Below, piece by piece: positions 5,099 to 62,574 of a stretch of 64,000 bases of DNA (its first letter is position 1; the number at the start of each line of letters is the position of its first letter). The stretch covers positions 43,472 through 107,471 of the forward strand of contig JAHLMP010000003.1 of the NCBI GenBank assembly GCA_018920315.1, read 5' to 3'. The notes beneath the pieces were generated by a model, which had not been told where the DNA came from, searched no databases, and worked only from the letters and a program-made list of their open reading frames with translations. Both the position numbers and the translations under genes were made by a program. This DNA is from Candidatus Aenigmatarchaeota archaeon (GTDB lineage Archaea > Aenigmatarchaeota > Aenigmatarchaeia > GW2011-AR5 > JAHLMP01).

Positions 5099-6193
5099 TC
5101 ATTTTATTATTTCTATTCCCAATTGTCTTGTTAAAGTTTTCTTTTCAGCTTCTGCACTTTTAACTGAAGGTCCTAAGATGTAAGGAGACTTTACTCCTGT
5201 TATTATTGTAATTACTTGTAATTTATCTTCGTATTCTGGCAATATCCTTGCACCCCAAATTACAGGAGCCTCTGGATCCAAGTGCTTAGATACCATTTCT
5301 CCAATAACATTTACTTCTTCTAACTTTAGTGTCGGCCCACCAACGATCTGGATTAATGCTCCTGTAGCTCCTGAGTAATCTACTTCAAGCAATGGATTGT
5401 TTAAAGCCTTCATTACTGCTTCCTTTGCTCTATTTTCGCTAGTGCTTTCACCAACACCTATGGCTGCAACTCCACCACTTCTCATTATTGTTCTTACATC
5501 AGCATAGTCAAGATTTACTAGTGAAGGTTGTGAGATTGTCTCGCAAATTCCTTTTATCATTGTAGCTATGAAATCGTCTGCTACTGCAAAGGCTTCTTTT
5601 AAAGGAAGGTTGCCAGCAAGTGATAATAATCTCTGATTTTCCATTACTATTACGGTATCGCAAACCTCTCTTAGTTGTGCAAGCCCTTCTTCTGCCTTTG
5701 CTATTCTTGCACCTTCTATCTTGAATGGCAATGTAACAGCGCCTATAACTATTGCTCCTATTTCTTTAGCTATCTTTGCTATTACTGGAGCAGAACCAGT
5801 ACCAGTACCTCCTCCTAAGCCACATGTAATAAATACCATGTCAGCATTCTCGAGTGCTGCTTTTAGCTCTGCCTTGCTTTCTTCTGCTGCTTTCTTTCCA
5901 ATTTGAGGATAACCTCCTGCTCCCAAGCCCTTTGTTAGTTCCTTTCCAATAAGTATTTTCTGATCGGCCTTTGATATAGCTAAATGCCTCGCATCTGTAT
6001 TTACTGCTATCGTCTTTGCTCCCATTATTCCTTTAGTATAAAGTCTTGTAATTGTATTATTTCCTGCTCCTCCAGCACCAACTACGATTATTCTTGCTTG
6101 ATAAGCGTCAAAATTCTCTACATTGCTTTCTCTTTTTGTTGGTTCTATTATTGGTATTTCTGTTATTTTGCTTGTTTCTATACTATAATTCAT
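5099..6193 (-). CDS. ftsZ: cell division GTPase FtsZ
   Basis: 364 aa with the tubulin signature GLGGGTGTGSAPV, plus VGAGGAGNNTI and the NTDARHL motif. Confidence 0.95.
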   Translation of the reverse strand: MNYSIETSKITEIPIIEPTKRESNVENFDAYQARIIVVGAGGAGNNTITRLYTKGIMGAKTIAVNTDARHLAISKADQKILIGKELTKGLGAGGYPQIGKKAAEESKAELKAALENADMVFITCGLGGGTGTGSAPVIAKIAKEIGAIVIGAVTLPFKIEGARIAKAEEGLAQLREVCDTVIVMENQRLLSLAGNLPLKEAFAVADDFIATMIKGICETISQPSLVNLDYADVRTIMRSGGVAAIGVGESTSENRAKEAVMKALNNPLLEVDYSGATGALIQIVGGPTLKLEEVNVIGEMVSKHLDPEAPVIWGARILPEYEDKLQVITIITGVKSPYILGPSVKSAEAEKKTLTRQLGIEIIK

Positions 6194-11528: not shown

Positions 11529-11580
11529 AAACTAAATATTTTTTTTCTATATTTAAAGTTTTCTTTTCTTATTTTTTATT

Positions 11581-11852
11581 GGAGGCCCGGGCTGGGCGGT
11601 TGCGCGTCGCCTGTAACCCGAAATCGTGCTTATGCGGGAGCCTATGACTCGAGGGCGGCATATGCTATTGCGAGGACTCCAAAGCTCTAGCGTAGAAGCC
11701 CAGTCCTTCAGGATATTTGCTGTAATGAACCAGGTCAGGTCAGGAATGAAGCAGCCTTAAGTTATAGCAAGTGTGCTTGAAGGGTTGCTGGGTGGAGCAA
11801 GGCTTTGGAACAATCCTCAAGGTAGCGTATGTCCACCAAGAGTCGGGCCTCC
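11581..11852 (+). ncRNA. signal recognition particle RNA (7S RNA)
   Basis: Visibly GC-rich island in AT-rich DNA. The termini GGAGGCCCGG...CGGGCCTCC are complementary. It contains the helix-8 signature CAGGTCAGGTCAGGAATGAAGCAGCC at 11731-11756. Confidence 0.9.
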
Positions 11853-11920
11853 ATTTAAATCTCTATTTAAATTTGAAACTAAATCATAGAAAATAAAGTT
11901 TGAAATAAAAGTGAATTCGC

Positions 11921-20542: not shown

Positions 20543-21907
20543 TTAATTTTTCGTATATATTTTTATCACATCCAATTCTTTTGTTTCGCAATCACAATTA
20601 AGTATTTCTGAAACGCTTGGCCTCGTTCTTCCATTATCTCCTGAAACAAGCTCTTTTACATAAAGACCTGCCTCGCATCTAACTATTAGCTCAAAAGAGT
20701 TTTTAGAAAGTAATTTAGCTTTTACACTTTTTACAACTCTCTTTCTTAACTTATCTCCTCTTCTTTTTAAAACTCTCAGTGGAGTTCTCTGACTTATAAT
20801 TCCTTCAATTGATTTTAATTCCTTCAAGTCATTTTTATTTATTTCTTTATCGCAAATTACTATTACTCTATACTCCTTATCATGTCTTTCTTCCTTTAAT
20901 TCTCTTGCTTCTTTAACATTGGTAAATCTAAGTTTTCTAATTCTTATCTTTTTACTTTTATTTACTTCATTTTCAAGTTTTTTTAGATTAATATATCTTT
21001 TCTTTGGTTGGATAACCTCTATCACAAAAGGTCTCCACCCTAAACAACGAGCATCTACATCCTCTCGACCAGCTCCATGAAATTTTGTTTTAATACCTTT
21101 GGTCATTTTAAGCAATTCTTTTGCTATTATCTCTTCGACAGAATTTTCATATCTTCTCGATTTTGTTTGCGCTATTCCTCTAACAAGCTTTTGATACTCA
21201 CCATATATAAAGAGAGGGTTTATTCTTATGCTTACTTCTTCATTCTCGAGATCTAATAAAATTAAAACATCTGGATATTGTAAGTTTGCTTTTATTTTTA
21301 ACTCCTTTTCTATTTCCTTTCCAATTGTTCTATTTATTTCTGTTTTTATTGGCTCGCACAAATCAATACCTATAGCTTCCCAAAGTTCTTCCTCTTTTTT
21401 TGCTAAATCTTCTGTTAATTTTGTTCCAACAACGTAGCTTCTAAACTCAATTTTGCTACTCTTTATTTTTCTTAAAATAAGCTCTTTCCATTTCTTTAAA
21501 TTTTCATCGGTAAAAAAATTGTTGCAAACATAGCAAATATTTTTTCCAGAATTTTGTTTTATACTTTCTATTTTCGATTTTATTTTTTCGTTTCTGAAAA
21601 CAAATGTTAAGAAGTTATTTAACTCGACATTAAGAGGACAAAAATCAAGAATAAATGCAAAAAAGTTTCTTAAGGTCTTTCCTCTTTTTCTATTATCCAT
21701 ATTAGAAAGAAGTTGAGCAAACTGGCGACCTAAACAATTATCGCATATATATCCGCGCTTAAATATTTCATATATTTTTTGTATTAAGATGTTTGTTTGG
21801 CTTTCGAATTCTACAAAATCTTTTTTATTATATTCGTTTATTTCTTCTATTTTATTGAAATTCTCCAAAATTTCATCTTTTCTATTTTTTCTTTCTTTTT
21901 CTTTCAA
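20543..21907 (-). CDS. pus10: tRNA pseudouridine(54/55) synthase Pus10
   Basis: 454 aa with N-terminal Zn motifs (CDNCLGRQF, CYVCNNFF), a THUMP-like middle region and the catalytic block HGAGREDVDARCLGWRPFVIEV. Confidence 0.9.
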   Translation of the reverse strand: MKEKERKNRKDEILENFNKIEEINEYNKKDFVEFESQTNILIQKIYEIFKRGYICDNCLGRQFAQLLSNMDNRKRGKTLRNFFAFILDFCPLNVELNNFLTFVFRNEKIKSKIESIKQNSGKNICYVCNNFFTDENLKKWKELILRKIKSSKIEFRSYVVGTKLTEDLAKKEEELWEAIGIDLCEPIKTEINRTIGKEIEKELKIKANLQYPDVLILLDLENEEVSIRINPLFIYGEYQKLVRGIAQTKSRRYENSVEEIIAKELLKMTKGIKTKFHGAGREDVDARCLGWRPFVIEVIQPKKRYINLKKLENEVNKSKKIRIRKLRFTNVKEARELKEERHDKEYRVIVICDKEINKNDLKELKSIEGIISQRTPLRVLKRRGDKLRKRVVKSVKAKLLSKNSFELIVRCEAGLYVKELVSGDNGRTRPSVSEILNCDCETKELDVIKIYTKN

Positions 21908-23966: not shown

Positions 23967-24941
23967 ATGAAAATTTGCAAATATTTAAAATGCAGTTGTG
24001 GAAGAGAAGCAATATATTTTAAAGAAAATGAAGGAAGAGCATACTGCAAATTTTGCTTATCTAAATATGTAGAAAAAAATTTCAAAAAAACAATTGGAAA
24101 AGAAAGATTAATAGAAAGGAATGATAAGATAGCTGTAGCTCTTTCTGGAGGTAAAGACTCTTCTCTTCTACTTTTTCTTTTGAAAAAATTTTTTAGGAAT
24201 GAACTATTTGCGATAATAATTGATGAAGGAATTGGAGAATATAGAGAAAAGAGCATAGAAAAAGCTAAAGAGCTTTGCATGAAACTGGGAGTGAATTATA
24301 AAATCGCTTCTTTTAAAAATGAGTTTGGATTTTCGATGAAAGAAATTTTTGAAGATTTAGAAATTAGAAAAAAATTATTGCCTTGTACATATTGCGGAGT
24401 TTTGAGAAGATATTTACTGAATAAAAAAGCTAGAGAAATCGATGCAAACAAGCTTGCGGTAGGAATAAACCTTGAAGATGAGGTAGAATCTATAATAATG
24501 AATATAATAAGAGATGATGTTGAAAGATTTTTAAAGCTTGGTGCTTTTCCATCTTTAATTGAAGATGAAAGATTTGTTCCACGAATAAAGCCATTAAGAA
24601 ATCTTAGCGAAAAAGAAATAATTCTTTATGATAAAATTTACAAAATTCCTTTTGAAAAGAAAAGATGTCCTTTTAGAGGAAATTCTATAAGATTTGATGT
24701 TAGAAAAATTTTACGAAATCTCGAGAAAAAATATCCGGGAACAAAATATCAGATAGTTAGATTCTATGATAAGATAAAGCCACTTCTATTAGAAAAGATT
24801 AAAGAAAATCAAGAAAAAGAAGCAAGAATAAATTATTGCAAATCATGTAAAGAACCGACTTCAAGAGAATTTTGTAAAGCTTGCGAGCTAATTAAAAAAT
24901 TAAAATCTTTGAAAGAGAAATACTCTACTCAAAACCTTTAG
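23967..24941 (+). CDS. TtuA/Ncs6-family tRNA 2-thiolation PP-loop ATPase
   Basis: 324 aa with an N-terminal Zn finger (CSCG...CKFC), the PP-loop ALSGGKDSS, and C-terminal CKSC...CKAC. Confidence 0.85.
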   Translation: MKICKYLKCSCGREAIYFKENEGRAYCKFCLSKYVEKNFKKTIGKERLIERNDKIAVALSGGKDSSLLLFLLKKFFRNELFAIIIDEGIGEYREKSIEKAKELCMKLGVNYKIASFKNEFGFSMKEIFEDLEIRKKLLPCTYCGVLRRYLLNKKAREIDANKLAVGINLEDEVESIIMNIIRDDVERFLKLGAFPSLIEDERFVPRIKPLRNLSEKEIILYDKIYKIPFEKKRCPFRGNSIRFDVRKILRNLEKKYPGTKYQIVRFYDKIKPLLLEKIKENQEKEARINYCKSCKEPTSREFCKACELIKKLKSLKEKYSTQNL

Positions 24942-31031: not shown

Positions 31032-31298
31032 ATGCTTAGAGGAATAGCTATGAAATTGAGAGTAAATAGGGGGTATAGAGAATATTTAAGAGAAGAGGTT
31101 GCATCAGACACGATAACAGATGATGATATAAAAAAAGAGTATTTTGTCTCAATGTATATTGAACCGGAAAATGAAGAAGATATGGAATTAATAAAGAAGA
31201 TGCATAGACTTAAGATGTATAGAGACTTTGACACTGAATTTTTAGGTTCTACTCCAGAAGAAGCTGAAAAAAGTATGAAAAAAATAAAGAAAATTTAA
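31032..31298 (+). CDS. hypothetical acidic protein
   Basis: 88-aa ORF with no recognised motif. Confidence 0.4.
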   Translation: MLRGIAMKLRVNRGYREYLREEVASDTITDDDIKKEYFVSMYIEPENEEDMELIKKMHRLKMYRDFDTEFLGSTPEEAEKSMKKIKKI

Positions 31299-31505
31299 AA
31301 AGAAGTTATGAAGAATGGCTTAGAAAAATAAGAGATGCTAAAGAAGACGAATTTAAATTAAACATTTAGCTTTAATTTTGTATTTTTTTCTTAGATAAAA
31401 ATTTAAAAATGAAGAACAAGATTAAATTAATAAAAATTAGAGTTTTATGTAAAAGCTAAAGCGAGATGCGAGGGTAGCCAAGTGGACAAAGGCGCTAGGC
31501 TTAGG

Positions 31506-31544
31506 AGATAAGGGCGAAGTTCAGGAAAATATTGAATTTGAGAC
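31506..31544 (+). other. tRNA-Leu canonical intron (37/38)
   Basis: BHB motif: central helix CTTA (31500-31503) / TGAG (31539-31542) with one G-U pair. The 3-nt bulges are GGA (31504-31506) and ACA (31543-31545). Confidence 0.8.
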
Positions 31545-31576
31545 ACCTAGTCCCTTAGTGGGTTCGCAGGTTCGAA

Positions 31577-31838
31577 GCGGTTTTCACATCTCACAAGTTT
31601 GTAAAAATTAAATGCGAGAATCAAAGAGTGTAGAATTCGAGATAGTTGATGAAAAGCTAAAAATTTGGCAATTCGCAAGAATAGAAAAAATAATTGAACA
31701 GAGCGTCTGAAGAAAAATTGAAAAAGATGAAAAAACTCGTAATAAATGGATAAAAATAAAATTTTAAAAATCGGAATGTAAGATTGAAGATTCGCGATAA
31801 TTAAATCTAAGAAAATTTCGATGTGAACATCGCGAAAA
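31577..31838 (+). other. tRNA-Leu T-loop intron (59/60), 262 nt
   Basis: BHB motif: central helix TTCG (31571-31574) / CGAA (31833-31836), with bulges AAG (31575-31577) and AAT (31837-31839). A 13-position helix follows, CGGTTTTCACATC (31578-31590) / GATGTGAACATCG (31820-31832), with one wobble and one mismatch. Confidence 0.8.
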
Positions 31839-31856
31839 TCCTGCCCCTCGCATTAA

Positions 31857-32129
31857 TCATGCTGAATAAGATCTCTTAAAACTAATCTCAAAAAGTGCCC
31901 AAGCCCAAATTATTGCCTCAAAAGCTCTAATTAAATCGCCTTTATTATAGAAGTATTTAGAATCTTCTATGTATGCTCTTATATCTTTTAGAATTTCTTT
32001 TTTGTTTTCTTTTTGGTTTTCTTTATTCAAATTATTCAACTCCTCTTCTATCTTGTTTTTCCATTTCTCTATTTCACTTTTTAGTTTAATTTCTATATCT
32101 CTATTTTCTATTTTATCGTTGTTTTTCAT
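31857..32129 (-). CDS. DUF357-like small protein
   Basis: 90 aa. The C-terminal half IRAYIEDSKYFYNKGDLIRAFEAIIWAWALFE resembles the DUF357 pattern. It shares an ATGA overlap with serS upstream. Confidence 0.55.
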   Translation of the reverse strand: MKNNDKIENRDIEIKLKSEIEKWKNKIEEELNNLNKENQKENKKEILKDIRAYIEDSKYFYNKGDLIRAFEAIIWAWALFEISFKRSYSA

Positions 32130-33391
32130 ATTCTATCTATTCCATTCATATATTCTTGCAATACCTTTGGAATAATTATATCTCCATTTTCTCTTTGATA
32201 TTGCTCTATTATTGCTATCATAGTTCTACTTGTAGCAATGGCTGTACTATTAAGCGTGTGAACAAAACCTTTGGGGAGCTGACCTTCTTTTTCTCTATAT
32301 TTTATATTTAATCTTCTTGCCTGATAATCTGTACAATTCGAGTTAGAGCCTGCTTCTCTAAAAATTCCGTCTGACATCCAGATTTCGATATCATATTTCT
32401 TGCTTGCAAAATCCCCTAGATCTGCGGTACAAATATTAACTACGCGATAATACAAACCAAGCTCTTGATATAACTCTTCAGCATTTTTCTGAATTTCTTC
32501 AAACATTTCCCAACTCTGATTTGGCAAGCAAAAAACAAATTGCTCAACTTTATGAAATTGATGCATTCTGAAAAGTCCTTTTGTATATTTTCCATGAGCT
32601 CCGACTTCCTTTCTAAAACATGGGCTTACTGCAACGATCTTTAAAGGAAGTTGAGAAGCAAGAAATGTTTCGTTCATAAACATTGCAGCAATAGGATGTT
32701 CCGCAGTAGCTATTAAGTATAAGTCCTCGTCTTCTATCTTATAAAGTTGCTCATGAAAGAATTCAAAATCTGTTGCTCCTTTATATGCTTCTTTTCTCAT
32801 CATGTATGGAGGAATTATTAGCCTATATCCTTTTTTTATTAATCTATCAATGGCAAATCTTATTAGTGCAAGGTCTAAAAGTGCAAGATTATTATACAAA
32901 TAAAAAAATCCTCTTCCAGCTATTTTTCCAGCTCTTTCATCATCTATTAACATCTTTTCTTTTAATATCTCTAAATGATTTTTTGGCTTGAAATCAAATT
33001 TAGGAGGAGAACCCCATCTTCTTATCTCAACATTTTCATTTCCTATAGGAACTGTCTCATGAATAAGATTTGGAATTTGCAACAATATTTCTTTACATCT
33101 TTTGTTAAAAATATTCAATTCCTTTTCCTTCGATTCTATCTCTTTCGAAATTTCACTAACTTTTTCTATCAAGCTCGTTATATTCTCTCCTTTATTTTTT
33201 CTTATCGATATTTCTTTAGTTAAAAGATTTTTTTCATGTTTGAGATTCTCAACTTCTTTTTTTAATTTCATTCTTTCCCTATCTTTCTCTAAAAGCTCTT
33301 CGAAAAGCTTTATCTTTTCAAAATTTTCTCTTTTTTCCAAATTCTTTCTAACAAAATCTGGGTTTTCTCTTATTAGCTTTATATCAAGCAT
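32126..33391 (-). CDS. serS: seryl-tRNA synthetase
   Basis: 421 aa with an N-terminal coiled-coil arm and class II motifs (FRKEVGAHG..., GLFRMHQFHKVE, TLNSTAIATSRTMIAIIE). Confidence 0.95.
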   Translation of the reverse strand: MLDIKLIRENPDFVRKNLEKRENFEKIKLFEELLEKDRERMKLKKEVENLKHEKNLLTKEISIRKNKGENITSLIEKVSEISKEIESKEKELNIFNKRCKEILLQIPNLIHETVPIGNENVEIRRWGSPPKFDFKPKNHLEILKEKMLIDDERAGKIAGRGFFYLYNNLALLDLALIRFAIDRLIKKGYRLIIPPYMMRKEAYKGATDFEFFHEQLYKIEDEDLYLIATAEHPIAAMFMNETFLASQLPLKIVAVSPCFRKEVGAHGKYTKGLFRMHQFHKVEQFVFCLPNQSWEMFEEIQKNAEELYQELGLYYRVVNICTADLGDFASKKYDIEIWMSDGIFREAGSNSNCTDYQARRLNIKYREKEGQLPKGFVHTLNSTAIATSRTMIAIIEQYQRENGDIIIPKVLQEYMNGIDRI

Positions 33392-49166: not shown

Positions 49167-49745
49167 ATGTGTCAAAAAAGAAACAGAATTTTAATTTTAT
49201 TTTGTTCTGACTTTAGAAGGAAGCTCTATCTCAGAGAGATTTCTAAACTGTCTAAAATTCCATTAAAAACAACATCTCGTATTATGAAAGATTTGGAAGA
49301 AAAAAATATTATTAGATATAATCTTGAAGGAAAACACAAGTATTTTGAACTAAATTTAGATAACATCGAAACAAAGTTTCTCTTAATAGAGGCTGAAATT
49401 AGTAAAATGTTTTCTTTTCTTAAAAAGTATCCTATATTTAATTCGTTTTTAAAGGACATAACTCTTGTTAATGGAATTATTTGTGTATTTGGTAGTTTCT
49501 CAGAACTCAAAGCAACGAAAGATAGCGATCTTGACATTTTAATTGTGTCTGACAAAAAAATTGAGTTGCCAAAGCATTTATTGCCTTACAAAACTAATGA
49601 GATACATTTGAATAGAAAAGAGTTCCTATCAGCCTTAAGTAAAGGTGAGCCACTTGTAAGAGAGATTTTAGCAAATCATACAATCCTACACAATCATAGT
49701 AGCTTTATTGATATTCTATGGTGGTATTATGGAAAAAAGAGTTAA
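49167..49745 (+). CDS. wHTH-fused minimal nucleotidyltransferase (MNT-type)
   Basis: 192 aa with an N-terminal wHTH (YLREISKLSKIPLKTTSRIMKDLEEKNII) and the NTase motif VFGSFSELKATKDSDLDILIV. Confidence 0.85.
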   Translation: MCQKRNRILILFCSDFRRKLYLREISKLSKIPLKTTSRIMKDLEEKNIIRYNLEGKHKYFELNLDNIETKFLLIEAEISKMFSFLKKYPIFNSFLKDITLVNGIICVFGSFSELKATKDSDLDILIVSDKKIELPKHLLPYKTNEIHLNRKEFLSALSKGEPLVREILANHTILHNHSSFIDILWWYYGKKS

Positions 49746-50199
49746 ATGGTGTTTTAGAGTAAAAGATGGGGCAAAAATGACTAAACCAAGCAAGATCATT
49801 TCAGACTCATATATAGAATTAGCGAAAAATACATTAAAAAGAGTTGAAACTATGTTAAATGAGAAGGATTTCTTATGGGCTACTGTTATGATTTACTATG
49901 CTGAATATTATGCTCTTTATTCGTTTTTGAGAAGAATTGGTATAAAATGTGAAAATCATTTTTGTTCTATTTTATTAGCAACATGTTTGCTGGGAAAAGA
50001 AATAACTAAAACAATTGAAGAACATAAAGATAGAAGAATTGATGCCCAGTATTATCTGAGGATCGTTAGGGAAGATAAGATAAATGAGATGTTTAGATCT
50101 GCAAAAATCTTTGTAGCAGAATTTGAAGATATTGTTTCAAAAATAAATGAAAGGAAAATTAGATTTTTTAGAAATAAGATTAAAAGATTGCTAAGATGA
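49729..50199 (+). CDS. HEPN domain protein (partner of the preceding NTase)
   Basis: All-alpha ~155-aa protein that overlaps the NTase stop. It carries a YYAEYYALYSFL helix and a DRRIDAQYY block equivalent to the R-x-x-x-Y region of its paralogues. The track ORF starts at 49708. Confidence 0.7.
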   Translation: MEKRVKWCFRVKDGAKMTKPSKIISDSYIELAKNTLKRVETMLNEKDFLWATVMIYYAEYYALYSFLRRIGIKCENHFCSILLATCLLGKEITKTIEEHKDRRIDAQYYLRIVREDKINEMFRSAKIFVAEFEDIVSKINERKIRFFRNKIKRLLR

Positions 50200-50210
50200 T
50201 CGCTTGTTGT

Positions 50211-50280
50211 AAATAGCACGCGAAGAAAATAATTCAAAATATTTTCCTCGTTAAGCAATGCTGCTTTGAAATCCTTCATC
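50211..50280 (+). repeat. island repeat, copy B
   Basis: AAATAGCACGCGAAGAAAATAATTCAAAATATTTTCCTCGTTAAGCAATGCTGCTTTGAAATCCTTCATC, starting 11 nt after the HEPN stop. Confidence 0.8.
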
Positions 50281-50607
50281 TTTAGCTTTTATCTAGATCA
50301 ATCCATTTCTCATTTGCAAAATATCTATATGGCAAGTTAATCGTAGAGTAGTAATTCTTAAGAGAGTGGTGATTCTTAAAATTCTTCTTAGTTTTTGCTA
50401 GTTTTTGCTAGCGCAACCATAATTCTACTTTATTAGCCAAATTCATTTTTCTAGGTTTTCCTACACATATCCTAAGAAGTGCTATAAGAAGAAAATGTCA
50501 AGCAAATAGAGAAGGTTAAGTAAAACAATTATGATTAGAGTAAGTATTAAACATTAGTGGAATATAATGTACTAAAAATTTAAATATAAGTGGAATTAAT
50601 AAATATT

Positions 50608-51912
50608 ATGGAAGAAAAGGAGCTTTTAAAATATAACGAGTGGTGGGAAACAGGAAAGGTAAGCGAAAAAAATTTAGAAGCATATAAAAGATATCTTTTT
50701 TACATAATTTTGAAATTCATTCAAGATAGACAAATTATACTAATAACTGGATTGAGACGTGTTGGTAAAACGAAATTGCTCTATCAAATTATTCATAATT
50801 TGCTTGAAAATGGAGTTGATCCAAGAAAAATCCTTTATTTTTCATTTGATGAAGAAGCTTTTGATATAAAAGATGTTTTAGAAACTTATAAAAAGAGTAT
50901 TTTGAGAAAGGATTTTAAAGATGTTGATAGAATTTATGTGTTTTTTGATGAGGTTCATAAGTGTAAAGATTGGGAAAACAAGATAAAGGTTTATTATGAT
51001 TTAAATCCAAACATCAAATTCTTTCTTTCTGGCTCAGCATCTCTAATAATCTCGAAACAAGCAAAAGAAAGCTTGGCTGGAAGAATTTATGAGTTCGTTC
51101 TCAAGCCATTAACATTTAAAGAATTTTTAGAAATGAAAAATGTTGAAGTAAGTTTTGAAGATGCAAAGCTTTTCAATGAAAAGATTTTGCTTTATTTTAT
51201 TGATTTTGTTAGAAAGGCCGGATTCCCAGAAATAATTAATGAAGATGATGATGAAAAAATTAGAACATATATAAAACTATCAGTTGTTGAAAGAATAATT
51301 TACAAAGACATACCAAAACAATTTGGAAAAACTGATATAGAGCTATTGGAAAATTTAACTAACATGTTTTTCAAAAACCCTGGATTAATTCTAAATTTTG
51401 AAAATTTGTCTAAAGACTTGAGAAGGGATAAGAAAACGATAATGAATTATGTTTATTATCTCAAGTTTTCTTTATTGATAAACTTGGTTTCAAATTTTAG
51501 AATAAGTATTCTCGCAACCTCAAGAAAAAATAGAAAGGTTTATCCAGTATCATCTTCTCTAATTTTCTCATTATATGGAATGTTTGATAGAAATATTTGG
51601 GGAAAGGTTTTAGAATCAATTTTTTGCAGCGAGACTGAAGCAAAATATTATTTCAGAAAAGGTAAAAAAGAGATAGATTTCTTGATATTAAAAGACAATA
51701 AAATAATTCCAGTTGAAATTAAGTATGCAATTTCTGAAAGTGAAATAAAGGATTTTATATCTTTATTAAAAAGCTTAAACATTAACAAAGGAATTATTCT
51801 CACATTTGACAAATTCGAAAAAATTCATGAGAAAAATTTTAAAATATTAATCTATCCTCTATGGCTTTACCTCCTTTTTGAAGATAGAATTCTAGAGGAA
51901 CTTGATTTTTAA
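50608..51912 (+). CDS. AAA+ ATPase, AAA_14/DUF4143 type
   Basis: N-terminal YNEWWETGKV, Walker A ITGLRRVGKTKL and Walker B-like YVFFDEVH, with a C-terminal PD-(D/E)xK-like EIDFLILKD...PVEIKY. The ATG at 50608 is preferred to the track GTG at 50590. Confidence 0.85.
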   Translation: MEEKELLKYNEWWETGKVSEKNLEAYKRYLFYIILKFIQDRQIILITGLRRVGKTKLLYQIIHNLLENGVDPRKILYFSFDEEAFDIKDVLETYKKSILRKDFKDVDRIYVFFDEVHKCKDWENKIKVYYDLNPNIKFFLSGSASLIISKQAKESLAGRIYEFVLKPLTFKEFLEMKNVEVSFEDAKLFNEKILLYFIDFVRKAGFPEIINEDDDEKIRTYIKLSVVERIIYKDIPKQFGKTDIELLENLTNMFFKNPGLILNFENLSKDLRRDKKTIMNYVYYLKFSLLINLVSNFRISILATSRKNRKVYPVSSSLIFSLYGMFDRNIWGKVLESIFCSETEAKYYFRKGKKEIDFLILKDNKIIPVEIKYAISESEIKDFISLLKSLNINKGIILTFDKFEKIHEKNFKILIYPLWLYLLFEDRILEELDF

Positions 51913-51914
51913 GC

Positions 51915-52070
51915 AAACAGCACGCGAATAAAATAATTCAAAATAAACTTTTTCATCGAACAAGGACATTTAAAGTCTTTAGCAGCAAGCTTAGTTCTAC
52001 TTGCTAGAGCTAAAGCATAGATTGTTAACTGATTAATAGCATTCATTTTTCAGCATCTGGCTTATAATCT
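51915..52070 (+). repeat. island repeat, copy C (full length)
   Basis: AAACAGCACGCGAATAAAATAATTCAAAATAAAC...GCAAGCTTAGTTCTACTTGCTAGAGCTAAAGCATAGATTGTTAACTGATTAATAGCATTCATTTTTCAGCATCTGGCTTATAATCT, starting 2 nt after the ATPase stop. Confidence 0.8.
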
Positions 52071-52200
52071 AAAATGTGGATTAATTCATTCTTCAGTTGC
52101 AAAATGTCTATTGCTATTCTTGTGCTATCATTTATTAGCATAAAGTTTGTATGCAAGGGGTCTTTCTTGCTTTTAAATAGTAATGCTAGCTTTGGCGATG

Positions 52201-52234
52201 ATAAATTTTATATATCAAATGATATAAAATTTAT
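52201..52234. promoter_or_regulatory. 13-bp perfect inverted repeat just upstream of the NTase start (candidate operator)
   Basis: ATAAATTTTATAT (52201-52213) pairs with ATATAAAATTTAT (52222-52234). The ATG is at 52238. Confidence 0.45.
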
Positions 52235-52237
52235 ATC

Positions 52238-52819
52238 ATGAAGAAAATAGAAATTTTGGAAAAGATTTATTTGAATCCTGGAATACACTTGAGAGAAATA
52301 GCGAGAAGAACAGGGCTTAGTATACCAGCAGTAAAAAATCACATAGATAAATTTCTAAGAGAAAAGGTTATAACAAAAAAGAAAGAAGGAAGGAATGTTA
52401 AGTTTTTCATCAACTTTAAGAGCAGAAAGATCATACCATATCTATCTGAGGTAGAGACATTTAGGTTGGAAAAGTTGCCTGAAAGGGTTGGCAACGCTGT
52501 AGTAGATCTTCTCTCTATTCTAGAAAATAAACCTTTAGTTACAATAATTTTTGGGTCTTATGCAAAAGATGATTACACCAAAGAGAGCGACCTAGATATT
52601 TTACTTGTCTTTAACAAAATAGATAGGGAAATAGAAGAAAAAACTAAATTAATTTGTTCCCGTTATTACCTAAAGGTTCGGCCTGTTTATCTGTCGTGGA
52701 AAGAATTTAAAGAAAAATTCTTCGACACTAAAAACGTCTTCATGCGCGAGATAAGAGAAAATAAGCTCATTGTCAATGGTATTGAATATTGGGTGATGCT
52801 GGAAAATGAAAAGGCCTAA
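52238..52819 (+). CDS. wHTH-fused minimal nucleotidyltransferase (MNT-type)
   Basis: 193 aa with a wHTH (HLREIARRTGLSIPAVKNHIDKFLREKVI) and IFGSYAKDDYTKESDLDILLV. Confidence 0.85.
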   Translation: MKKIEILEKIYLNPGIHLREIARRTGLSIPAVKNHIDKFLREKVITKKKEGRNVKFFINFKSRKIIPYLSEVETFRLEKLPERVGNAVVDLLSILENKPLVTIIFGSYAKDDYTKESDLDILLVFNKIDREIEEKTKLICSRYYLKVRPVYLSWKEFKEKFFDTKNVFMREIRENKLIVNGIEYWVMLENEKA

Positions 52820-53360
52820 CTGGAAAGTTTGGTTAGAAAACAGAAAGGAATGTAAGAAATGGAACAATTTCTATCTACAAAAGAAAATTCTAAGAAAACA
52901 GAGTTTAAAACCTAAAGATTACTTTATAAAGGCCTTACATAATTTAGATTTTGCGAACTGGATTTATGAAAAACATAAAAATGAGATAAAGAACTTATTT
53001 GGTGAACAAAGATTTTTTGATTGGGTAATTGTGATTTACTACTATGCTATCTACCATGCTGCTCTTGCTCTAATAGCTTCTAAAAATTTGTTTTCTAAAT
53101 CTCATTTAGCTACTTTGAATGCGCTAATTCTATATTTTTACCATGAGAAAAAAATAGAGAAGGAAGATGTAGAGATTGTGATTGAATCTATTTCTAAAGT
53201 TCTTGAAAGAGAAGATATAGAAACTATAGTAGAAACAAAGGAATTAAGGGAGAGAGCTAGTTACGGAGCAAGCTACGAATTTGAAGAATCTTTAGTAGAA
53301 ACTGCAAAATCGAATGCAATAAAGTTTATAGAAAAGGTTAGAAGCATATTAGAGATATAA
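52806..53360 (+). CDS. HEPN domain protein
   Basis: 184 aa, overlapping the NTase end by 14 nt. It has IYYYAIYHAALALIASKNLFSKSH and ELRERASYGASYE blocks. Confidence 0.75.
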   Translation: MKRPNWKVWLENRKECKKWNNFYLQKKILRKQSLKPKDYFIKALHNLDFANWIYEKHKNEIKNLFGEQRFFDWVIVIYYYAIYHAALALIASKNLFSKSHLATLNALILYFYHEKKIEKEDVEIVIESISKVLEREDIETIVETKELRERASYGASYEFEESLVETAKSNAIKFIEKVRSILEI

Positions 53361-53371
53361 TTATTTCTGAG

Positions 53372-53463
53372 AAATAGCATGCTAAGAAAATAATTCAAAA
53401 TATTTTCCTCGTTAAGTAATGCTGCTTTGAAATCCTTTACTGCAAGCTCTGTTCTCAAACTAA
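53372..53463 (+). repeat. island repeat, copy D
   Basis: AAATAGCATGCTAAGAAAATAATTCAAAATATTTTCCTCGTTAAGTAATGCTGCTTTGAAATCCTTTACTGCAAGCTCTGTTCTCAAACTAAG, starting 11 nt after the HEPN stop. Confidence 0.8.
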
Positions 53464-53473
53464 GTATAAGATA

Positions 53474-53888
53474 TTATCTTGCTAGTTCTCTTTCTATAAT
53501 AGATTTTAGTTTCAAGAATAAAGTTTTACCCATTTCTACATTTCTTTCTACTGTTTCTTCACTTAGAATCTTACCATAATATTTTATCCCATGCCTCTTC
53601 TTTTTTAATTTGTGTAATAATTCTGTTTCATAATTATCAAGGTATTTTCCTCTCAAAAATTCGATTGCACATTCATGGGGAAAGAGTTTTTAACCCTTCT
53701 AAAGCCAGAAAAGCGTGGCATAATTCGATGACAGATTCATAAATACCTTCAAGCACAAATATTGAACAGCCTTTAGAAGAAAAGAAATTAAATCTACTAG
53801 AGGCCATTTTGAAGAGGGATTTTGCTAATTCTTTATCTTTAGTTCTTTTTTCTACCAAGTTTAGTCTAACACATTTTTCCCAATTCAT
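53474..53888 (-). pseudogene. HEPN gene split by a 1-nt frameshift in a C4 (plus-strand G4) run
   Basis: ORFs 53673..53888 (...ALEGLKTLSP*) and 53474..53656 (RGKYLDNYE...KKKRHGIKYYG...) are the N and C halves of one HEPN. Deleting one C from the run at 53677-53680 gives ...LEGLKTLSHECAIEFLRGKYL..., which restores the conserved S-H helix. Confidence 0.75.
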
Positions 53889-54421
53889 TACAAGACCTTG
53901 AAGTATCCTTTTATTACAAAACCATTAATGAGATTATTAAGCAATTCTGGATTTTCTTTTTTTACTATTTCTAAGTTTTTTACAAATAGCAAAGAGATAT
54001 TTCTATTCAATTCCTTCTCTATTTTTTTAAAATTAATTTCAACTTCTTTTGCACCGATAATGCACAAGTCAAAATCACTATTTTCTATATCCTCGCCTCT
54101 AGAAGCAGAACCAAAAAGTATTATTGCATCAAAGTCCTCTAGCTCTTTTTCTATGATATTACCAATCTCAAAAGCTTTTAGTAAATTGTAAATTATTTTA
54201 TATTTTTTATAGTTTTCACTTTCACAGTTTGCTTTGAAGATAGATAAATTTTTTTCCTTACTTTCGAGTATCATACCTTCTCTTTTTAGTCTACTAATTG
54301 AAAATCTAACCTTTACTGGGCTCCATTTTAGTAATCTACATATCTCTCGTAAATGAAACGAATAAAGAGGTTTTTTAATAAACAGTTCTAATAATTTCCA
54401 TTCGTTATATTTTTCTAACAT
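53888..54421 (-). CDS. wHTH-fused minimal nucleotidyltransferase (MNT-type)
   Basis: 177 aa with a wHTH (HLREICRLLKWSPVKVRFSISRLKREGMI) and ILFGSASRGEDIENSDFDLCIIG. Its stop overlaps the start of the split HEPN. Confidence 0.85.
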   Translation of the reverse strand: MLEKYNEWKLLELFIKKPLYSFHLREICRLLKWSPVKVRFSISRLKREGMILESKEKNLSIFKANCESENYKKYKIIYNLLKAFEIGNIIEKELEDFDAIILFGSASRGEDIENSDFDLCIIGAKEVEINFKKIEKELNRNISLLFVKNLEIVKKENPELLNNLINGFVIKGYFKVL

Positions 54422-54433
54422 ATGTAATATTTT

Positions 54434-54449
54434 TATATCAATTGATATA
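54434..54449. promoter_or_regulatory. perfect 16-bp palindrome upstream of the minus-strand NTase (candidate operator)
   Basis: TATATCAATTGATATA, 13 nt upstream of the start at 54421. Confidence 0.45.
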
Positions 54450-54465
54450 TAAATCTAACGTTTAT

Positions 54466-54550
54466 AAACTGCATGAAGAAGAAAAATTCATAATAAGCTT
54501 TGTCATTAAATGCTGCTTTGAAATCCTTTAATTACGAGCTTAGTTCTCTC
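54466..54550 (+). repeat. island repeat, copy E
   Basis: AAACTGCATGAAGAAGAAAAATTCATAATAAGCTTTGTCATTAAATGCTGCTTTGAAATCCTTTAATTACGAGCTTAGTTCTCTC. It has the same orientation as the other copies although both flanking genes are on the minus strand. Confidence 0.75.
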
Positions 54551-55884
54551 TAGGAAATGAGGGACAAAAACAAGCTAACAGGAAGTATTAAAATATTATT
54601 GGCTTCATCAAAGTTTAATATATCTTTAGAAAGTATAATTTTATTTTTTATATCAACTTTTGGAAAATCTTTAAAACTAACTCCTTCTTGCCATTTGACT
54701 TCAATACCGAAATCGCCAAAGCAAATGTCAATCTCCTTTTTGTTATGATAGAAGCCTATTTTTAGTTTATCCTTTATACATCTTGTTAAATTTTCAACAA
54801 CAATACCCTCAACGATCTTCTCATAGTTTTCTATCTCTTTTTTTCCGGTTAATTTTCTCTGTATTACATGATACAAGAAAGGATCTATAAAATATACTTT
54901 TCTCATCTTTCTGTAAACTACAAGTTTTTTATTTAAATCAAAAGTGTGAAAGTTTTTAATTACAAACAAATCTTCTAATATTTCTAAATATTCTCTTACT
55001 GTTACATGAGATCCTATCTCTACTTCTTTTGCAATTGAACTAAGGGAAAATTTTGTTGAATAATTTTTTAATATACCCAAAAGCAAGCCACTAACTATCT
55101 TTTCGCTTCTATTTATCTTTGCTATATCGTGGATTAGCCATTTCCAGTAAATGTCATAAGTTTCCTCTTTTATATCTCCATTTTCCATTAATTCATAAAA
55201 AGCCCTTGGAAATCCTCCGCATTTTAAATATTTAAAGAAAAGCTTGTTGAGCTCGTCGATATAGAAAAACATCTTTTTTGCTTTTCCAAAAACTTCATTT
55301 AAGTTAATAAAATTGATCTTTTCCAAATTTTTCTTTAACTCTTCACTTCCAAATATATTTATGAATGATCGAAATGAAAGAGGGAGAAATTCTTTTATTT
55401 CAATTGCTCTGCCAGGAAAGCTTTCCTTTTTAAGTGCTAGGGAAGAGGAGCCAGTTATATAAAAAATTTTTTCTTTTGATAATGGCGAATCTAGAATATA
55501 TTTTACTGCTCTTTCCCAATTCTCTACAAAACTTATTTCATCAAGAAAAACGTATTTTTCACCTTCTATAAACATATCAAGCTTTCTAACAAGCTCTATT
55601 ATTTCTTCAAAATTTCTTAACATTTCGCAGCTAAAATAGAATACCTTCTTAGGGTCTATGCCTTTGTTGAACAATAAATCATATATCAAAAGCTTAAAAT
55701 AGGTTGTTTTTCCAGTTTGTCTTGGACCAAAGAAAAGCATGTTAGATTTCCTTTCAAAACTATACAAAAGCTTGCTATTTCTTGAGAAAGCTTCTTTTAT
55801 TTTATCATCTTCTAATATTCTATCCTTAGATATCCACCAAGGATTTTGTTCTCTAATTAATGTTTCATCTACCATAATTGACAA
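54550..55884 (-). CDS. AAA+ ATPase, AAA_14/DUF4143 type
   Basis: EQNPWWISKD, Walker A FFGPRQTGKTTY, Walker B-like YVFLDEISF, and a C-terminal EIDICFGDFGIEVKW nuclease-like block. Confidence 0.85.
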   Translation of the reverse strand: MSIMVDETLIREQNPWWISKDRILEDDKIKEAFSRNSKLLYSFERKSNMLFFGPRQTGKTTYFKLLIYDLLFNKGIDPKKVFYFSCEMLRNFEEIIELVRKLDMFIEGEKYVFLDEISFVENWERAVKYILDSPLSKEKIFYITGSSSLALKKESFPGRAIEIKEFLPLSFRSFINIFGSEELKKNLEKINFINLNEVFGKAKKMFFYIDELNKLFFKYLKCGGFPRAFYELMENGDIKEETYDIYWKWLIHDIAKINRSEKIVSGLLLGILKNYSTKFSLSSIAKEVEIGSHVTVREYLEILEDLFVIKNFHTFDLNKKLVVYRKMRKVYFIDPFLYHVIQRKLTGKKEIENYEKIVEGIVVENLTRCIKDKLKIGFYHNKKEIDICFGDFGIEVKWQEGVSFKDFPKVDIKNKIILSKDILNFDEANNILILPVSLFLSLIS

Positions 55885-56019
55885 TTAAATGTCAATAATT
55901 AAATATTTTTTGATAGAAGAATGTCAATAATTTATAATCAATTATATATAACGGCAAGTTTTATAACTAAAATATTTAAGTTTTGACAGACAATTCTTAG
56001 AATTTCCGAATAGATTCGT

Positions 56020-56338
56020 TTTTAAAGGAAAATGGCTTTGATATCTCACACAAAAAATACTCTAATGCACTAATTCTAAATTTTTATCATGAGAAGAAGG
56101 ATTAAAAAAGAAGATGCAGAAACTACAGCCAAATCTATTTTCAAAGTTCTTGAAAATGGATTCGAAAAAACTAAGTTGAAACAGGAAATAAGAGAAAGAG
56201 CAGTTATGAGAGTATCTAAAATAAGCAAGGTTTAGCGAATAAAATACTTAGACAACTTGCGAGATTAGACAAGAGGTAGAGGAAGCTGTTAAAAATGCTG
56301 AATTTGTCATAAAGGAAATAGAAAAACTAATCCTCTAA
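56020..56338 (+). pseudogene. decayed HEPN gene remnant
   Basis: ...SNALILNFYHEKKD* and later ...EEAVKNAEFVIKEIEKLIL* align with the intact paralogue at 52806..53360 (LNALILYFYHEKKIEKEDVE...; ESLVETAKSNAIKFIEKVRSILEI). They are broken by stops and frameshifts, and the N-terminus is missing. Confidence 0.6.
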
Positions 56339-56445
56339 ATAAAAAATATGCAAAGAAAAAAATTCAAAATAAACTTTTATCATCAAACCAAGGAGATTTA
56401 AGATCTTTTGCCACTTGCTAGAGCTAAAGCATAGATTGGTTCATG
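56337..56445 (+). repeat. island repeat, copy F
   Basis: AAATAAAAAATATGCAAAGAAAAAAATTCAAAATAAAC...CCACTTGCTAGAGCTAAAGCATAGATTGGTTCATG. Confidence 0.75.
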
Positions 56446-56480
56446 TTCTATACCTTCGAGATCAAATAAAAGTCTTACGG

Positions 56481-56499
56481 AGTATAAAATATTTATACT
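56481..56499. promoter_or_regulatory. 8-bp-arm inverted repeat upstream of the NTase (candidate operator)
   Basis: AGTATAAA-ATA-TTTATACT, 21 nt upstream of the ATG at 56520. Confidence 0.4.
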
Positions 56500-56519
56500 T
56501 TCGTATACAAAAATTATAT

Positions 56520-57134
56520 ATGTTGAAAAGGCTCGTAATATCTAGAACAAGAGTCAAATTATTAAAACTATTTTTTTTAAATAGGGAAAGGGAATTCTAT
56601 CTAAGAGAAATAGCTAAATTAACAGGAGATAATTTAAATTCTGTGAGAAGAGAATTAAATAATCTGGTAAAAATTAAAATAATAGAAGAGAGAAAAAGAG
56701 GTAATCAAAAATTATATAAAGTCAACAAGAACTCCCCAATTCATGAAGAATTAAGAAAACTTATTTTGAAGACAGTCGGAATTGGTGATACACTTAGAGA
56801 GAACTTATTAAAATTAAATAACGTAGTATATGCTTTAATTTATGGTTCTTTTGCTACTGGAGAAGAAGTTGAAGAAAGCGATATAGATTTACTAATTGTT
56901 GGTGATTTAGATGAAGAAAAAGTTATCGAAGTAATAAGACGATTAGAATATGAACTAACAAGAGAAATCAACTATATTTTGTGGAGCACAAAAGAATTTG
57001 AAAAAAGAGTTAAGGAAAGGAACCATCTTCTTTTAGACATAGTTGAAAAACCTATAATTATGATTATAGGTGATGAAAATGAGTTTAGGAAAATTGTTAA
57101 GGGATGGATTAATAAGAAAAATAAGAGTCGATAA
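56520..57134 (+). CDS. wHTH-fused minimal nucleotidyltransferase (MNT-type)
   Basis: From the ATG at 56520: MLKRLVISRTRVKLLKLFF...YLREIAKLTGDNLNSVRRELNNLVKIKII and LIYGSFATGEEVEESDIDLLIVG. The track ORF begins at a TTG at 56415, inside repeat copy F. Confidence 0.85.
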   Translation: MLKRLVISRTRVKLLKLFFLNREREFYLREIAKLTGDNLNSVRRELNNLVKIKIIEERKRGNQKLYKVNKNSPIHEELRKLILKTVGIGDTLRENLLKLNNVVYALIYGSFATGEEVEESDIDLLIVGDLDEEKVIEVIRRLEYELTREINYILWSTKEFEKRVKERNHLLLDIVEKPIIMIIGDENEFRKIVKGWINKKNKSR

Positions 57135-57522
57135 AAGTTTAGTGAGAAAATCATTTTCCATAGCAGAAAGAGACTTAAACACAGCGAAAAAGGTTTTCGA
57201 AAGCGGAAGTTACGGTTGGTCTCTTGCTATAGCTTATAATTCAATGCTCCAAGCCGGAAGAGCTTTAATGTTTTTGAATGGGTTTAAGCCTACTAATCGA
57301 TATCAACATATAGCTGTAATTAGATTTACTCATATAGTTTTTGGTAAAGAAATTACTGATAGAATGATTAACATTTTTGATAGGTTGAGGGAAAAGAGAC
57401 ATAAGGTTGTGTATGAAGAGGTAGATATTATTTCTGAAGATGAAGCTAGGAATGCAATAGAATGGGCATGTGAATTCGTATCAAAAGTTAAAGAGATATT
57501 GAGAAAGAAAAAACTTATCTAG
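57073..57522 (+). CDS. HEPN domain protein
   Basis: ~149 aa that overlaps the NTase end. It has WSLAIAYNSMLQAGRALMFLNG...YQH and LREKRHKVVYEE, an R-x4-6-H-compatible block. Confidence 0.8.
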   Translation: MKMSLGKLLRDGLIRKIRVDKSLVRKSFSIAERDLNTAKKVFESGSYGWSLAIAYNSMLQAGRALMFLNGFKPTNRYQHIAVIRFTHIVFGKEITDRMINIFDRLREKRHKVVYEEVDIISEDEARNAIEWACEFVSKVKEILRKKKLI

Positions 57523-61800: not shown

Positions 61801-62574
61801 TTGAGAAATTAAGCTTGCTGTATCTAAATTAACGAGAACTTGATAATCTGTAAGATTATTGGAATTTTGTATATTGGTTATGGTTATTGGTTTTCTATAA
61901 CTAAAACCTTGAAGCCAGCAGCCTTGAATATTGTAAGAAAAATTTCTTGTCCATAGCGCGCTATCAAATGATCTGCTATCAGTAAACCTTATATCTCCGC
62001 AATCGCTTCTCATCTTACCTTGAGAGATTAAATAACTAGTATTTAAAGTAAAACTTATATAACTTGCATCATTTATTATAGGGCCCGTACCATTTATCTC
62101 CCTTCTACAACAAAAAACAGGGTCATCATGGAATTCAACTCTAACAAAACTTTCCTTTCCTTTAACATTTCTTGCGATAATAGTCGCGTTATAAGTTTTT
62201 CCTACCTCTACGCTATGAACAAACCAGGTAGCTTGATAAACTCCGTGGGTAGCGTTTCCTTCAACTAAAGAAAGATTTATGATCTCAATCCCAGCCATAT
62301 CGGCTTTAACGCTTTCAATTCCATATTCATCTTTTATCTCTGCTTTAATTATCATATAATCGCTCGGCTCAACTTTTATTGGCTCTACGCTTGCATTAAT
62401 AATTTCTGGTGATTTTGAAAATATAGAGATTATAAAGCCAGTTGGCGAAGTTAGATAAACAGAAAAGAATGCTAAGAGCATTAGAATTGCTACGAGGATT
62501 ATTAAATACTTTTTCATTTCAAACATTTTCATATTTATCATTATTTTAAAAAATAAAAATTTAATTCTTCTCAT
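58888..62574 (-). CDS. giant secreted surface protein with DUF2341-like and LamG/concanavalin-like modules
   Basis: 1228 aa with the signal anchor MKKYLIILVAILMLLAFFSVYL. It has three RKPITI.../GDIRFTD... (DUF2341-like) modules, FFDDF...W lectin-like modules and a Gly-rich C-terminus. Confidence 0.85.
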   Translation of the reverse strand: MRRIKFLFFKIMINMKMFEMKKYLIILVAILMLLAFFSVYLTSPTGFIISIFSKSPEIINASVEPIKVEPSDYMIIKAEIKDEYGIESVKADMAGIEIINLSLVEGNATHGVYQATWFVHSVEVGKTYNATIIARNVKGKESFVRVEFHDDPVFCCRREINGTGPIINDASYISFTLNTSYLISQGKMRSDCGDIRFTDSRSFDSALWTRNFSYNIQGCWLQGFSYRKPITITNIQNSNNLTDYQVLVNLDTASLISQGKMRSDFGDIRFTDSDGSTLLNYWIENHTGVLYVGYDDGAKCYLNGNLVFDAITEAHVVSFWNKIVDVSPYLVDGENLLACWVANGGENSGTSAGGLDLKLVVDGQVIIPQSDDDSNTSTKDSNCAANPIFKYYYCAHPCQPSNWYNVSFDDSSWSSGNGPFAPTSSWGCTNALTTAPDDLFVRKKFNITTRIWVKVPLIPANSMKMIYVYYGNPSASSMSNGDATFDFFDDFLGTSLNTSKWVAYSNNYSVSNSILRINNGGIERTSAFDFRIQDGYMAEVKVKHEVLASNYGGVLPEVASSPYTASGNANADATILYMRNNGVETVYYWIGDGSNGSYNIASAVSTGWNAATGNWYITGISVNGGTVKLWRDGNTIITRTGINWAKDLRYVKLGTFNRNDTYDLQDTSYDWIRVRKYASPEPTTSVWGEETENSTETSFSVQLPSGVTSFFAYYGNPQVTSISNSSIIGFSYRKPITITNIQNSNNLTDYQVLVNLDTASLISQGKMRSDFGDIRFTDSDGSTLLNYWIENHTGVLYVGYDDGAKCYLNGNLVFDAITEAHVVSFWNKIVDVSPYLVDGENLLACWVANGGENSGTSAGGLDLKLVVDGQVIIPQSDDDSNTSTKDSNCAANPIFKYYYCAHPCQPSNWYNVSFDDSSWSSGNGPFAPTSSWGCTNALTTAPDDLFVRKKFNITTRIWVKVPLIPANSMKTIYVYYGNPSASSASNGVNTFVFFDDFESYVADTDINNQGGWITKRVGGTGEAKVRLANGRKHLHLTSTDSATAVVHPVSTSNSGYAIRLYEFADDWDEAFSMAFSDDQITTYGNVYNGYEIVWWGWSGITSKIRKWVNGASTDLASISDSDSNNVYHTLEFIWYGSTLKAIRDGVEKLSATDTTYSSRTYIHLDEWNGSSRYIDWVLVRKYASPEPTTSVGVEEPVTLGPEETWIRISGGGGSLLITGGSGGGLRIK
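59630..60390. repeat. intragenic direct repeat, copy 1 (761 bp)
   Basis: Matches 61148..61908 at an offset of 1518 nt. The boundaries were read by eye. One mismatch was noted, G59663 vs A61181. The shadow ORFs 59760..59945 / 61278..61463 and 59928..60164 / 61446..61682 are identical. Confidence 0.9.
61148..61908. repeat. intragenic direct repeat, copy 2 (761 bp)
   Basis: See copy 1. Confidence 0.9.

Follow-up and report, generated by a model that had tools for sequence, protein, structure and literature searches.

Heavy disruption of tRNA genes is best known from Thermoproteales, Nanoarchaeum and ARMAN. Archaeal tRNA introns have been described with lengths of 11 to 129 nt, and position 59/60 is among the known non-canonical sites of insertion (2014 review, PMC4090602). 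Some genes carry several introns, as in Pyrobaculum islandicum, whose tRNA-Pro(UGG) gene is interrupted at positions 25/26, 37/38 and 56/57 (PMC4090602). A 121-nt intron in the tRNA-Asp(GUC) gene of Aeropyrum pernix, whose splicing was confirmed by cDNA, has been termed unusually long (PMC4307357), and the euryarchaeal tRNA-Trp intron carries a box C/D guide RNA (PMC4090602). DPANN archaea are reported to have disrupted tRNA genes and tRNA sets that are incomplete when standard tools are used, and their splicing endonucleases include the epsilon2 EndA of ARMAN-2 and alpha4 EndAs with an L3 loop (PMC3239211; PMC5829648). [quoted passage not shown]

The gene described here is located in a 64-kb stretch of DNA (the window, 64,000 nt in full) that is ~30% G+C, contains an archaeal SRP RNA at 11580-11853 and is assigned by seryl-tRNA synthetase homologues to the Aenigmatarchaeota, within DPANN. 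The gene is very likely a functional tRNA-Leu(UAG) gene of an uncultured archaeon of this group, expressed as a single ~385-nt precursor from which two introns would be removed by protein-dependent splicing. Position 59/60, multi-intron tRNA genes and splicing at bulge-helix-bulge (BHB) structures are already documented, and the remarkable part is the length of the second intron, its variation in size among close relatives and the fact that routine annotation overlooks the gene. At 262 nt, this intron is about twice the 129-nt maximum of the 2014 review. A preliminary description of this DNA had called a T-loop intron of this length exceptional, which holds against both the 11-129 nt range (PMC4090602) and the 121-nt example (PMC4307357). 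The literature searched, the coverage of which is incomplete and is no proof of a record, mentions no tRNA intron of an archaeon above 129 nt. The gene occupies 31468-31852 on the forward strand, and its three exons and two introns are collinear within 385 nt. The features of the locus are as follows.

31444..31455, + strand: putative TATA-like promoter element TTTTATGTAAAA, 13-24 nt 5ˊ of the mature 5ˊ end
31468..31505, + strand: exon 1, with the acceptor 5ˊ strand, D-arm, anticodon stem 5ˊ strand and positions 32-37, which include the anticodon UAG
31506..31544, + strand: intron 1, 39 nt, at the canonical position 37/38
31545..31576, + strand: exon 2, with A38, the anticodon stem 3ˊ strand, long variable arm, T-stem 5ˊ strand and T-loop positions 54-59
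31577..31838, + strand: intron 2, 262 nt, in the T-loop at position 59/60
31612..31710, + strand: ORF of 32 codons within intron 2, judged to be a chance ORF
31839..31852, + strand: exon 3, 14 nt, with U60, the T-stem 3ˊ strand, acceptor 3ˊ strand and A73

When the three exons are spliced in silico, they form an 84-nt class II tRNA-Leu that ARAGORN calls as tRNA-Leu(tag). This RNA has a 7-bp acceptor stem, standard D- and T-arms, a long variable arm composed of a 3-bp stem and a 5-nt loop, the anticodon UAG and the discriminator base A73. The anticodon loop reads CUUAGGA (CTTAGGA in the DNA) and the T-loop reads UUCGAAU (TTCGAAT). CCA is not encoded at the 3ˊ end of the gene. The AGTTTTAT core of the TATA-like element is kept 5ˊ of the tRNA-Leu gene in two relatives (L010 and L003, see below). 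An NCBI MAG contig (L019) and a Logan assembly made independently of it (L001) have exactly this locus sequence, and the agreement of two independent assemblies shows that it is not an assembly artefact. From the letters alone, the preliminary description had proposed a tRNA-Leu(UAG) gene with a canonical intron and a 262-nt BHB intron at 59/60, with splicing that regenerates the CTTAGGA and TTCGAAT loops and with a near-ideal order of helix, 3-nt bulge, 4-bp helix, 3-nt bulge and helix at both introns. ARAGORN and the relatives agree with this proposal, the spliced 84-mer has both loops, the structural fit is as described, and the coordinates given for the three exons and two introns are correct to the base. 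ARAGORN had also been suggested there as a check, and its outcome is divided in that the spliced 84-mer is called and the unspliced gene is missed.

Splice sites were assigned by the archaeal rule of a 4-bp helix between two 3-nt bulges, with cuts after the second bulge base. Both introns conform to the hBHBh' arrangement, with two 3-nt bulges, a 4-bp helix and flanking helices. For intron 1, the structure consists of the anticodon stem, a central helix of CUUA (31500-31503) with UGAG (31539-31542) and a 3-bp inner helix h'. For intron 2, the 5-bp T-stem is followed by a central helix of UUCG (31571-31574) with CGAA (31833-31836), in which all pairs are Watson-Crick and the UUCG strand corresponds to T-loop positions 54-57. 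The two bulges are AAG and AAU, and the inner helix h' joins 31578-31590 with 31820-31832 in 13 pairs, of which one is G-U and one is mismatched (U/C), so that it is slightly degraded in comparison to its counterparts in L010 and L003. The acceptor stem, T-stem and long inner helix also form when the precursor is folded without constraints. However, a scan that tolerates G-U pairs yields ~900 BHB-like motifs within the 64-kb window. Such motifs are common by chance in AT-rich DNA, and the motif alone is weak evidence. The weight of the evidence comes from the exact restoration of the tRNA, for which there is both the ARAGORN call and a naturally intron-less junction in a relative (L008), and from the relatives more generally.

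Relatives of the locus were found by synteny (SerRS, DUF357 and an upstream small ORF) and by searching genome and metagenome collections for a DNA pattern of exon 1. At least four distinct lineages retain the 59/60 intron, the length of which is 262 nt in the window (identical to L001 and L019), 273 nt in a sister species with ~90% DNA identity (L010), 115 nt in L003 (= L016) and 72 nt in L017 (= L018). Two additional contigs (L002 and L004) end within the 59/60 intron, and the 3ˊ end of the intron followed by exon 3 is visible in both. Among the complete introns, the central helix and bulges are identical across the four length classes, and the interiors cannot be aligned between classes. 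The first pair of h' is C-G in three complete copies; in L017 it is U-A, a compensatory change. Covariation in relatives had been named beforehand as a way to check this intron, and what emerges is conservation of the splice-site helices with this one compensatory pair.

The related lineage represented by L008, L011, L013, L014 and L015 has the same exons except for one D-loop base, and it carries the 37/38 intron alone. Its uninterrupted T-loop reads TTCGAATCCTGC, with TTCGAA joined directly to TCCTGC, and this copy, which has no T-loop intron, scores 53.4 bits against the Rfam tRNA model RF00005 with the full model covered. The predicted exon 2/exon 3 junction is exact, because a related lineage has these exons joined directly. 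Intron 1 is present in all relatives with a length of 31-50 nt. The more distant L007 and L009 (= L012) have no 59/60 intron, and gain of intron 2 within a small clade therefore appears to be the simpler history, judged from presence and absence.

Several further observations concern these relatives. The assemblies L002 and L004 are independent short-read assemblies, and both break inside the 59/60 intron. The intron 3ˊ end of L002, GAUUGAGAAAA, would place a G57/A mismatch in the central helix unless the T-loop of L002 differs. Within intron 1, every relative with the same variable arm retains the block AAGGGCGAAGUUCAG (31510-31524), and even the more diverged L009 keeps it as AAGGGCGAUGCUCAG; the remainder of intron 1 varies. 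The UAAGGG of this block is complementary to CCCUUA of the variable arm. Upstream of the tRNA-Leu gene, an 88-aa ORF (31032-31298, + strand) has no family match, large deletions in L010, and two homologues of ~70% identity among 5.8 billion proteins. It is a doubtful or fast-evolving gene.

Comparison of the window with L010 reveals no substitutions in the 84 exon bases, against divergences of 7.8% for intron 2, 15.4% for intron 1, 15.7% for the upstream spacer, 10-16% for other local non-coding DNA and 21-23% for third codon positions of neighbouring genes. By our own arithmetic, the chance of no changes in the exons at the intron 2 rate is ~0.001. Exon 1 is identical in L010 and has a single D-loop difference in L003 and L008, and exon 3 shows no variation among six aligned relatives. 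That the exons are identical while third codon positions differ by ~22% points to a gene under selection, and the purifying selection indicated for the tRNA-Leu exons argues against a pseudogene.

We propose that each exon-intron boundary pair of the precursor folds into a BHB structure. At 59/60, T-loop positions 54-57 (UUCG) would pair with CGAA at the 3ˊ end of the intron to form a 4-bp helix that extends the T-stem, flanked by the two 3-nt bulges and closed by the 13-pair intron helix. The 14-nt 3ˊ exon would be held by the acceptor stem and T-stem during splicing. Cleavage in the four bulges would fall to the splicing endonuclease of archaea, EndA, after which an RtcB-type ligase would join the three exons and probably also circularise the introns. 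Addition of CCA would follow exon joining, and enzymes that act on the T-loop, such as Pus10, would do so after the T-loop is rebuilt and not before. A strict BHB in the T-loop would force this order, with splicing preceding both modification by Pus10 or other T-loop enzymes and the tertiary folding of D-loop and T-loop. The ~230-nt interior of intron 2 is most likely an A-rich spacer that is tolerated, changes fast and has no function in itself.

Among the ~40 window ORFs scanned with Pfam, none encodes EndA (PF01974/PF02778), RtcB or another splicing enzyme. A broad-specificity endonuclease had been raised in the preliminary description, and it is not strictly required for intron 2 because the BHB of this intron is strict. 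Two genes for tRNA modification enzymes had also been read from the window as relevant to the T-loop. The first, for Pus10, is indeed present (20543-21907, - strand; TIGR01213, 407 bits). The second, described as a TtuA/Ncs6-type thiolase, is a PP-loop thiolase of the NcsA/TtuA family (23967-24941, + strand), but the proposed role in the T-loop is doubtful, as it matches NcsA (216 bits) better than TtuA (170 bits), with both scores under the curated cut-offs. NcsA acts in U34 thiolation and TtuA in T54 thiolation of the T-loop, and this protein looks more like the former. Elsewhere in the window, 49167-57522 holds a cluster of nucleotidyltransferase/HEPN pairs (toxin-antitoxin-like) together with two AAA_14/DUF4143 ATPases, and a 1228-aa ORF (58888-62574, - strand) has an internal repeat of ~1.5 kb with identical motifs 1518 nt apart.

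The long intron might instead carry a functional cargo, either a stable (circular) small RNA or a 32-residue peptide, in the manner of the euryarchaeal tRNA-Trp intron with its box C/D RNA, which we regard as unlikely. The long form is common to two species (262 nt, and 273 nt in L010) at ~92% identity, and it is less diverged (7.8%) than local non-coding DNA (~15%) and third codon positions (~22%). This slower divergence may reflect constraint on the interior, recent transfer or, with two sequences compared, chance. In addition, the 32-codon ORF is intact in L010 without indels, while the 3ˊ third of the intron has undergone four indel events, and the UGAUGA (31647) and CUGA (31707) boxes are kept in that species. 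However, the interior, the ORF and the boxes are all missing from the 115-nt (L003) and 72-nt (L017) versions in close relatives. Intron 2 of the window can be aligned with the 115-nt version in the first ~40 nt and the last ~25 nt alone, and the extra ~150 nt of the long intron occur only in the window and L010. With 47% A and a G+C content of 29%, equal to the genome average, the interior is A-rich. The preliminary description had drawn attention to both the ORF and the boxes; they exist as stated there, and a function for either finds no support.

Specifically, a structured RNA in the interior was rejected because its folding is no better than that of shuffled sequences (z = -0.29). A box C/D guide RNA has a C box (RUGAUGA) and a D box (CUGA) that a terminal stem brings together, and internal D'/C' boxes with guides of ~12 nt. 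This identity was rejected because the two boxes are separated by 54 nt, UGAUGA follows a U instead of the expected purine, intron 2 was found to have neither C'/D' boxes nor a closing stem formed by flanking complementarity, and no Rfam small RNA family matches it. The ORF was rejected as a coding sequence on several grounds in addition to its absence from the short forms. It has no Shine-Dalgarno-like motif, where neighbouring genes have GGTGA or GAGG, and no gene call for it is on record. Its changes relative to L010 (4 nonsynonymous and 4 synonymous) are distributed 2/2/4 by codon position and amount to a rate of 8.1%, matching the rest of the intron. By our own estimate, the probability that such an ORF arises by chance in this composition is ~0.2.

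Other candidate identities for intron 2 were also rejected. A homing-endonuclease intron is inconsistent with a longest sense ORF of 32 codons, compared to ~150 aa or more for LAGLIDADG-type proteins. For a group I self-splicing intron, there is no Rfam match at the gathering threshold or at E values up to 10, and folding is at the shuffle level. A twintron, in which a second BHB is nested in the long intron, would have to be built from weak A/T-rich chance motifs alone. For a repeated or mobile element, the interior has no second copy in the 64-kb window and no similarity to phage and plasmid records, and viral contigs contain no exact copy of a 26-nt motif from it.

The tRNA-Leu gene is not the only tRNA gene in this group with an intron at 59/60. 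A tRNA-Glu(CUC) gene that adjoins the Pus10 gene in the window has two introns, and ARAGORN calls it after removal of both:

20196-20038, - strand: tRNA-Glu(CUC) gene
20172-20147, - strand: intron in the D-loop, 26 nt, with a relaxed BHB containing two G-U pairs in the central helix
20109-20052, - strand: intron at 59/60, 58 nt, with the central helix UUCA/UGAA

The relaxed D-loop motif may require a broad-specificity endonuclease. No relatives of the tRNA-Glu gene were found among the collected related loci or viral contigs, and a search of the window for G+C islands and GGTTCRAA sites revealed no tRNAs besides Leu and Glu.

A candidate circularly permuted tRNA-Ile(GAU) gene is located directly 3ˊ of tRNA-Leu in L008 (~5966-6090, + strand) and also in L011, L013, L014 and L015. 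Positions 31-73, the 3ˊ part, come first and are interrupted at 59/60 by an 11-nt intron; a TTAA linker and then positions 1-30, the 5ˊ part, follow. Leader and trailer fold together into a BHB at 30/31, the helix of which is 7 bp long (GCACAGC/GCUGUGC). This arrangement was derived by hand and the joined sequence is accepted by ARAGORN, the junction enumeration of which is too permissive for permuted tRNAs to inform by itself. To our knowledge, permuted tRNAs in archaea have been described only for Thermofilum pendens. In these genes, the intron base opposite position 57 covaries, with G57-C in tRNA-Leu and A57-U in both tRNA-Glu and the tRNA-Ile of the relative. Position 59/60 thus appears to be used repeatedly in Aenigmatarchaeota, in Leu, Glu and Ile.

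These examples raise the prospect, which we consider unlikely, that BHB introns targeting the T-loop form a family that spread among Aenigmatarchaeota tRNA genes, with the 59/60 intron as a member and its long form either recently transferred or selectively maintained. The 3ˊ end of the intron, YGAAAA, pairs with the nearly universal T-loop positions 54-57, which would allow a single intron type to enter any tRNA. If so, one possible role of the long form would be as a stable circular RNA, and another would be to provide opposite-strand oligo-T terminators for the convergent SerRS operon.

In archaea, a run of at least 5 T nucleotides is a terminator signal. The sense strand of intron 2 has no such run and has eight runs of at least 5 A. 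The absence of oligo-T is consistent with read-through, and at this length it is not statistically significant. The opposite-strand oligo-T runs face the convergent SerRS-DUF357 genes (31857-33391), the stop codon of which is 4 nt from the 3ˊ end of tRNA-Leu. These runs could terminate the convergent SerRS-DUF357 transcript.

It is very unlikely that the tRNA-Leu gene is split, or is becoming so, with a 3ˊ piece, comprising the intron end and exon 3, that has its own promoter within the A/T-rich intron and is ligated in trans. Intron 2 does have many TATA-like A/T stretches, split or permuted tRNAs exist in DPANN and in the relative L008 (the permuted tRNA-Ile), and intron length rises from 72 to 273 nt among the relatives. 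However, the collinear arrangement of all parts on one strand within 385 nt is not that of a split or permuted gene, and intron 2 lacks a sense-strand oligo-T terminator. The shorter versions are clearly ordinary cis-introns, and a second promoter is not required.

Least probable of all is a tRNA pseudogene disrupted by an insertion in a cell that uses another tRNA-Leu gene, since the failure of standard tools to find the gene and the mismatch in h' are outweighed by exons that are perfectly conserved against a background divergence of 8-22%, insertion boundaries that match to the base a strict BHB restoring the T-loop, retention of the arrangement, compensatory change included, by at least four lineages, and the finding that the genome representing the sister species (L010) yields only a single locus with this exon 1.

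Neither ARAGORN nor Rfam, whether at its gathering threshold or with E values up to 10, picks up the unspliced tRNA-Leu gene. A tRNA finder run with no intron option also misses the relatives that have the canonical intron alone, so its silence says little. Both tRNA genes of the window (Leu and Glu) are invisible to ARAGORN and Rfam, and the 'missing' tRNAs of DPANN archaea may therefore be in part detection failures. Arguments about completeness or dependency that are built on such missing tRNAs may in part rest on the same failures.

Read as a functional gene that is spliced in cis, the locus has several other implications. Its long form (262-273 nt) has approximately twice the maximum length that reviews quote for archaeal tRNA introns, the 72-273 nt range among close relatives constitutes a natural series for the growth of a BHB intron, and the tRNA-Leu precursor represents a defined long substrate for DPANN splicing endonucleases. 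Together, the 59/60 introns in three tRNAs and the permuted tRNA candidate would extend heavy tRNA gene disruption to the Aenigmatarchaeota.

Among known systems, the disrupted tRNA genes of other DPANN archaea are from the same superphylum and share non-canonical and multiple introns with the genes described here. Aenigmatarchaeota were not among the genomes analysed in the DPANN endonuclease studies (PMC5829648), and the present window has no EndA. The tRNA-Ile(UAU) of C. merolae offers a parallel in a T-arm intron that must be removed before T-loop pseudouridylation, as would apply to Pus10 here, although that tRNA is eukaryotic, its introns are short and its endonuclease complex is different (PMC9602550). 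The euryarchaeal tRNA-Trp intron is likewise longer than usual, and the UGAUGA and CUGA sequences of intron 2 invite the comparison. However, intron 2 lacks the box C/D architecture and is inserted at 59/60, not at 37/38.

The multi-intron tRNAs of Thermoproteales and other Crenarchaeota are similar in having BHB introns, more than one per gene, at 37/38 and in the T-arm region. The window gene differs from these in coming from a DPANN genome of ~30% G+C rather than from a thermophilic crenarchaeon, in having an intron of 262-273 nt where 11-129 nt have been reported, and in having a strict hBHBh' motif at this intron rather than a relaxed one. [quoted passage not shown] Archaeal rRNA BHB introns are hundreds of nucleotides long and often contain a homing-endonuclease ORF. 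The rRNA introns differ from intron 2 in their host RNA and in the endonuclease ORF that is absent here, yet EndA removes such introns at lengths far greater than 262 nt. Because BHB introns of several hundred nucleotides exist in rRNA, a length of 262 nt is neither a mechanistic novelty nor a problem for the splicing of this tRNA-Leu precursor.
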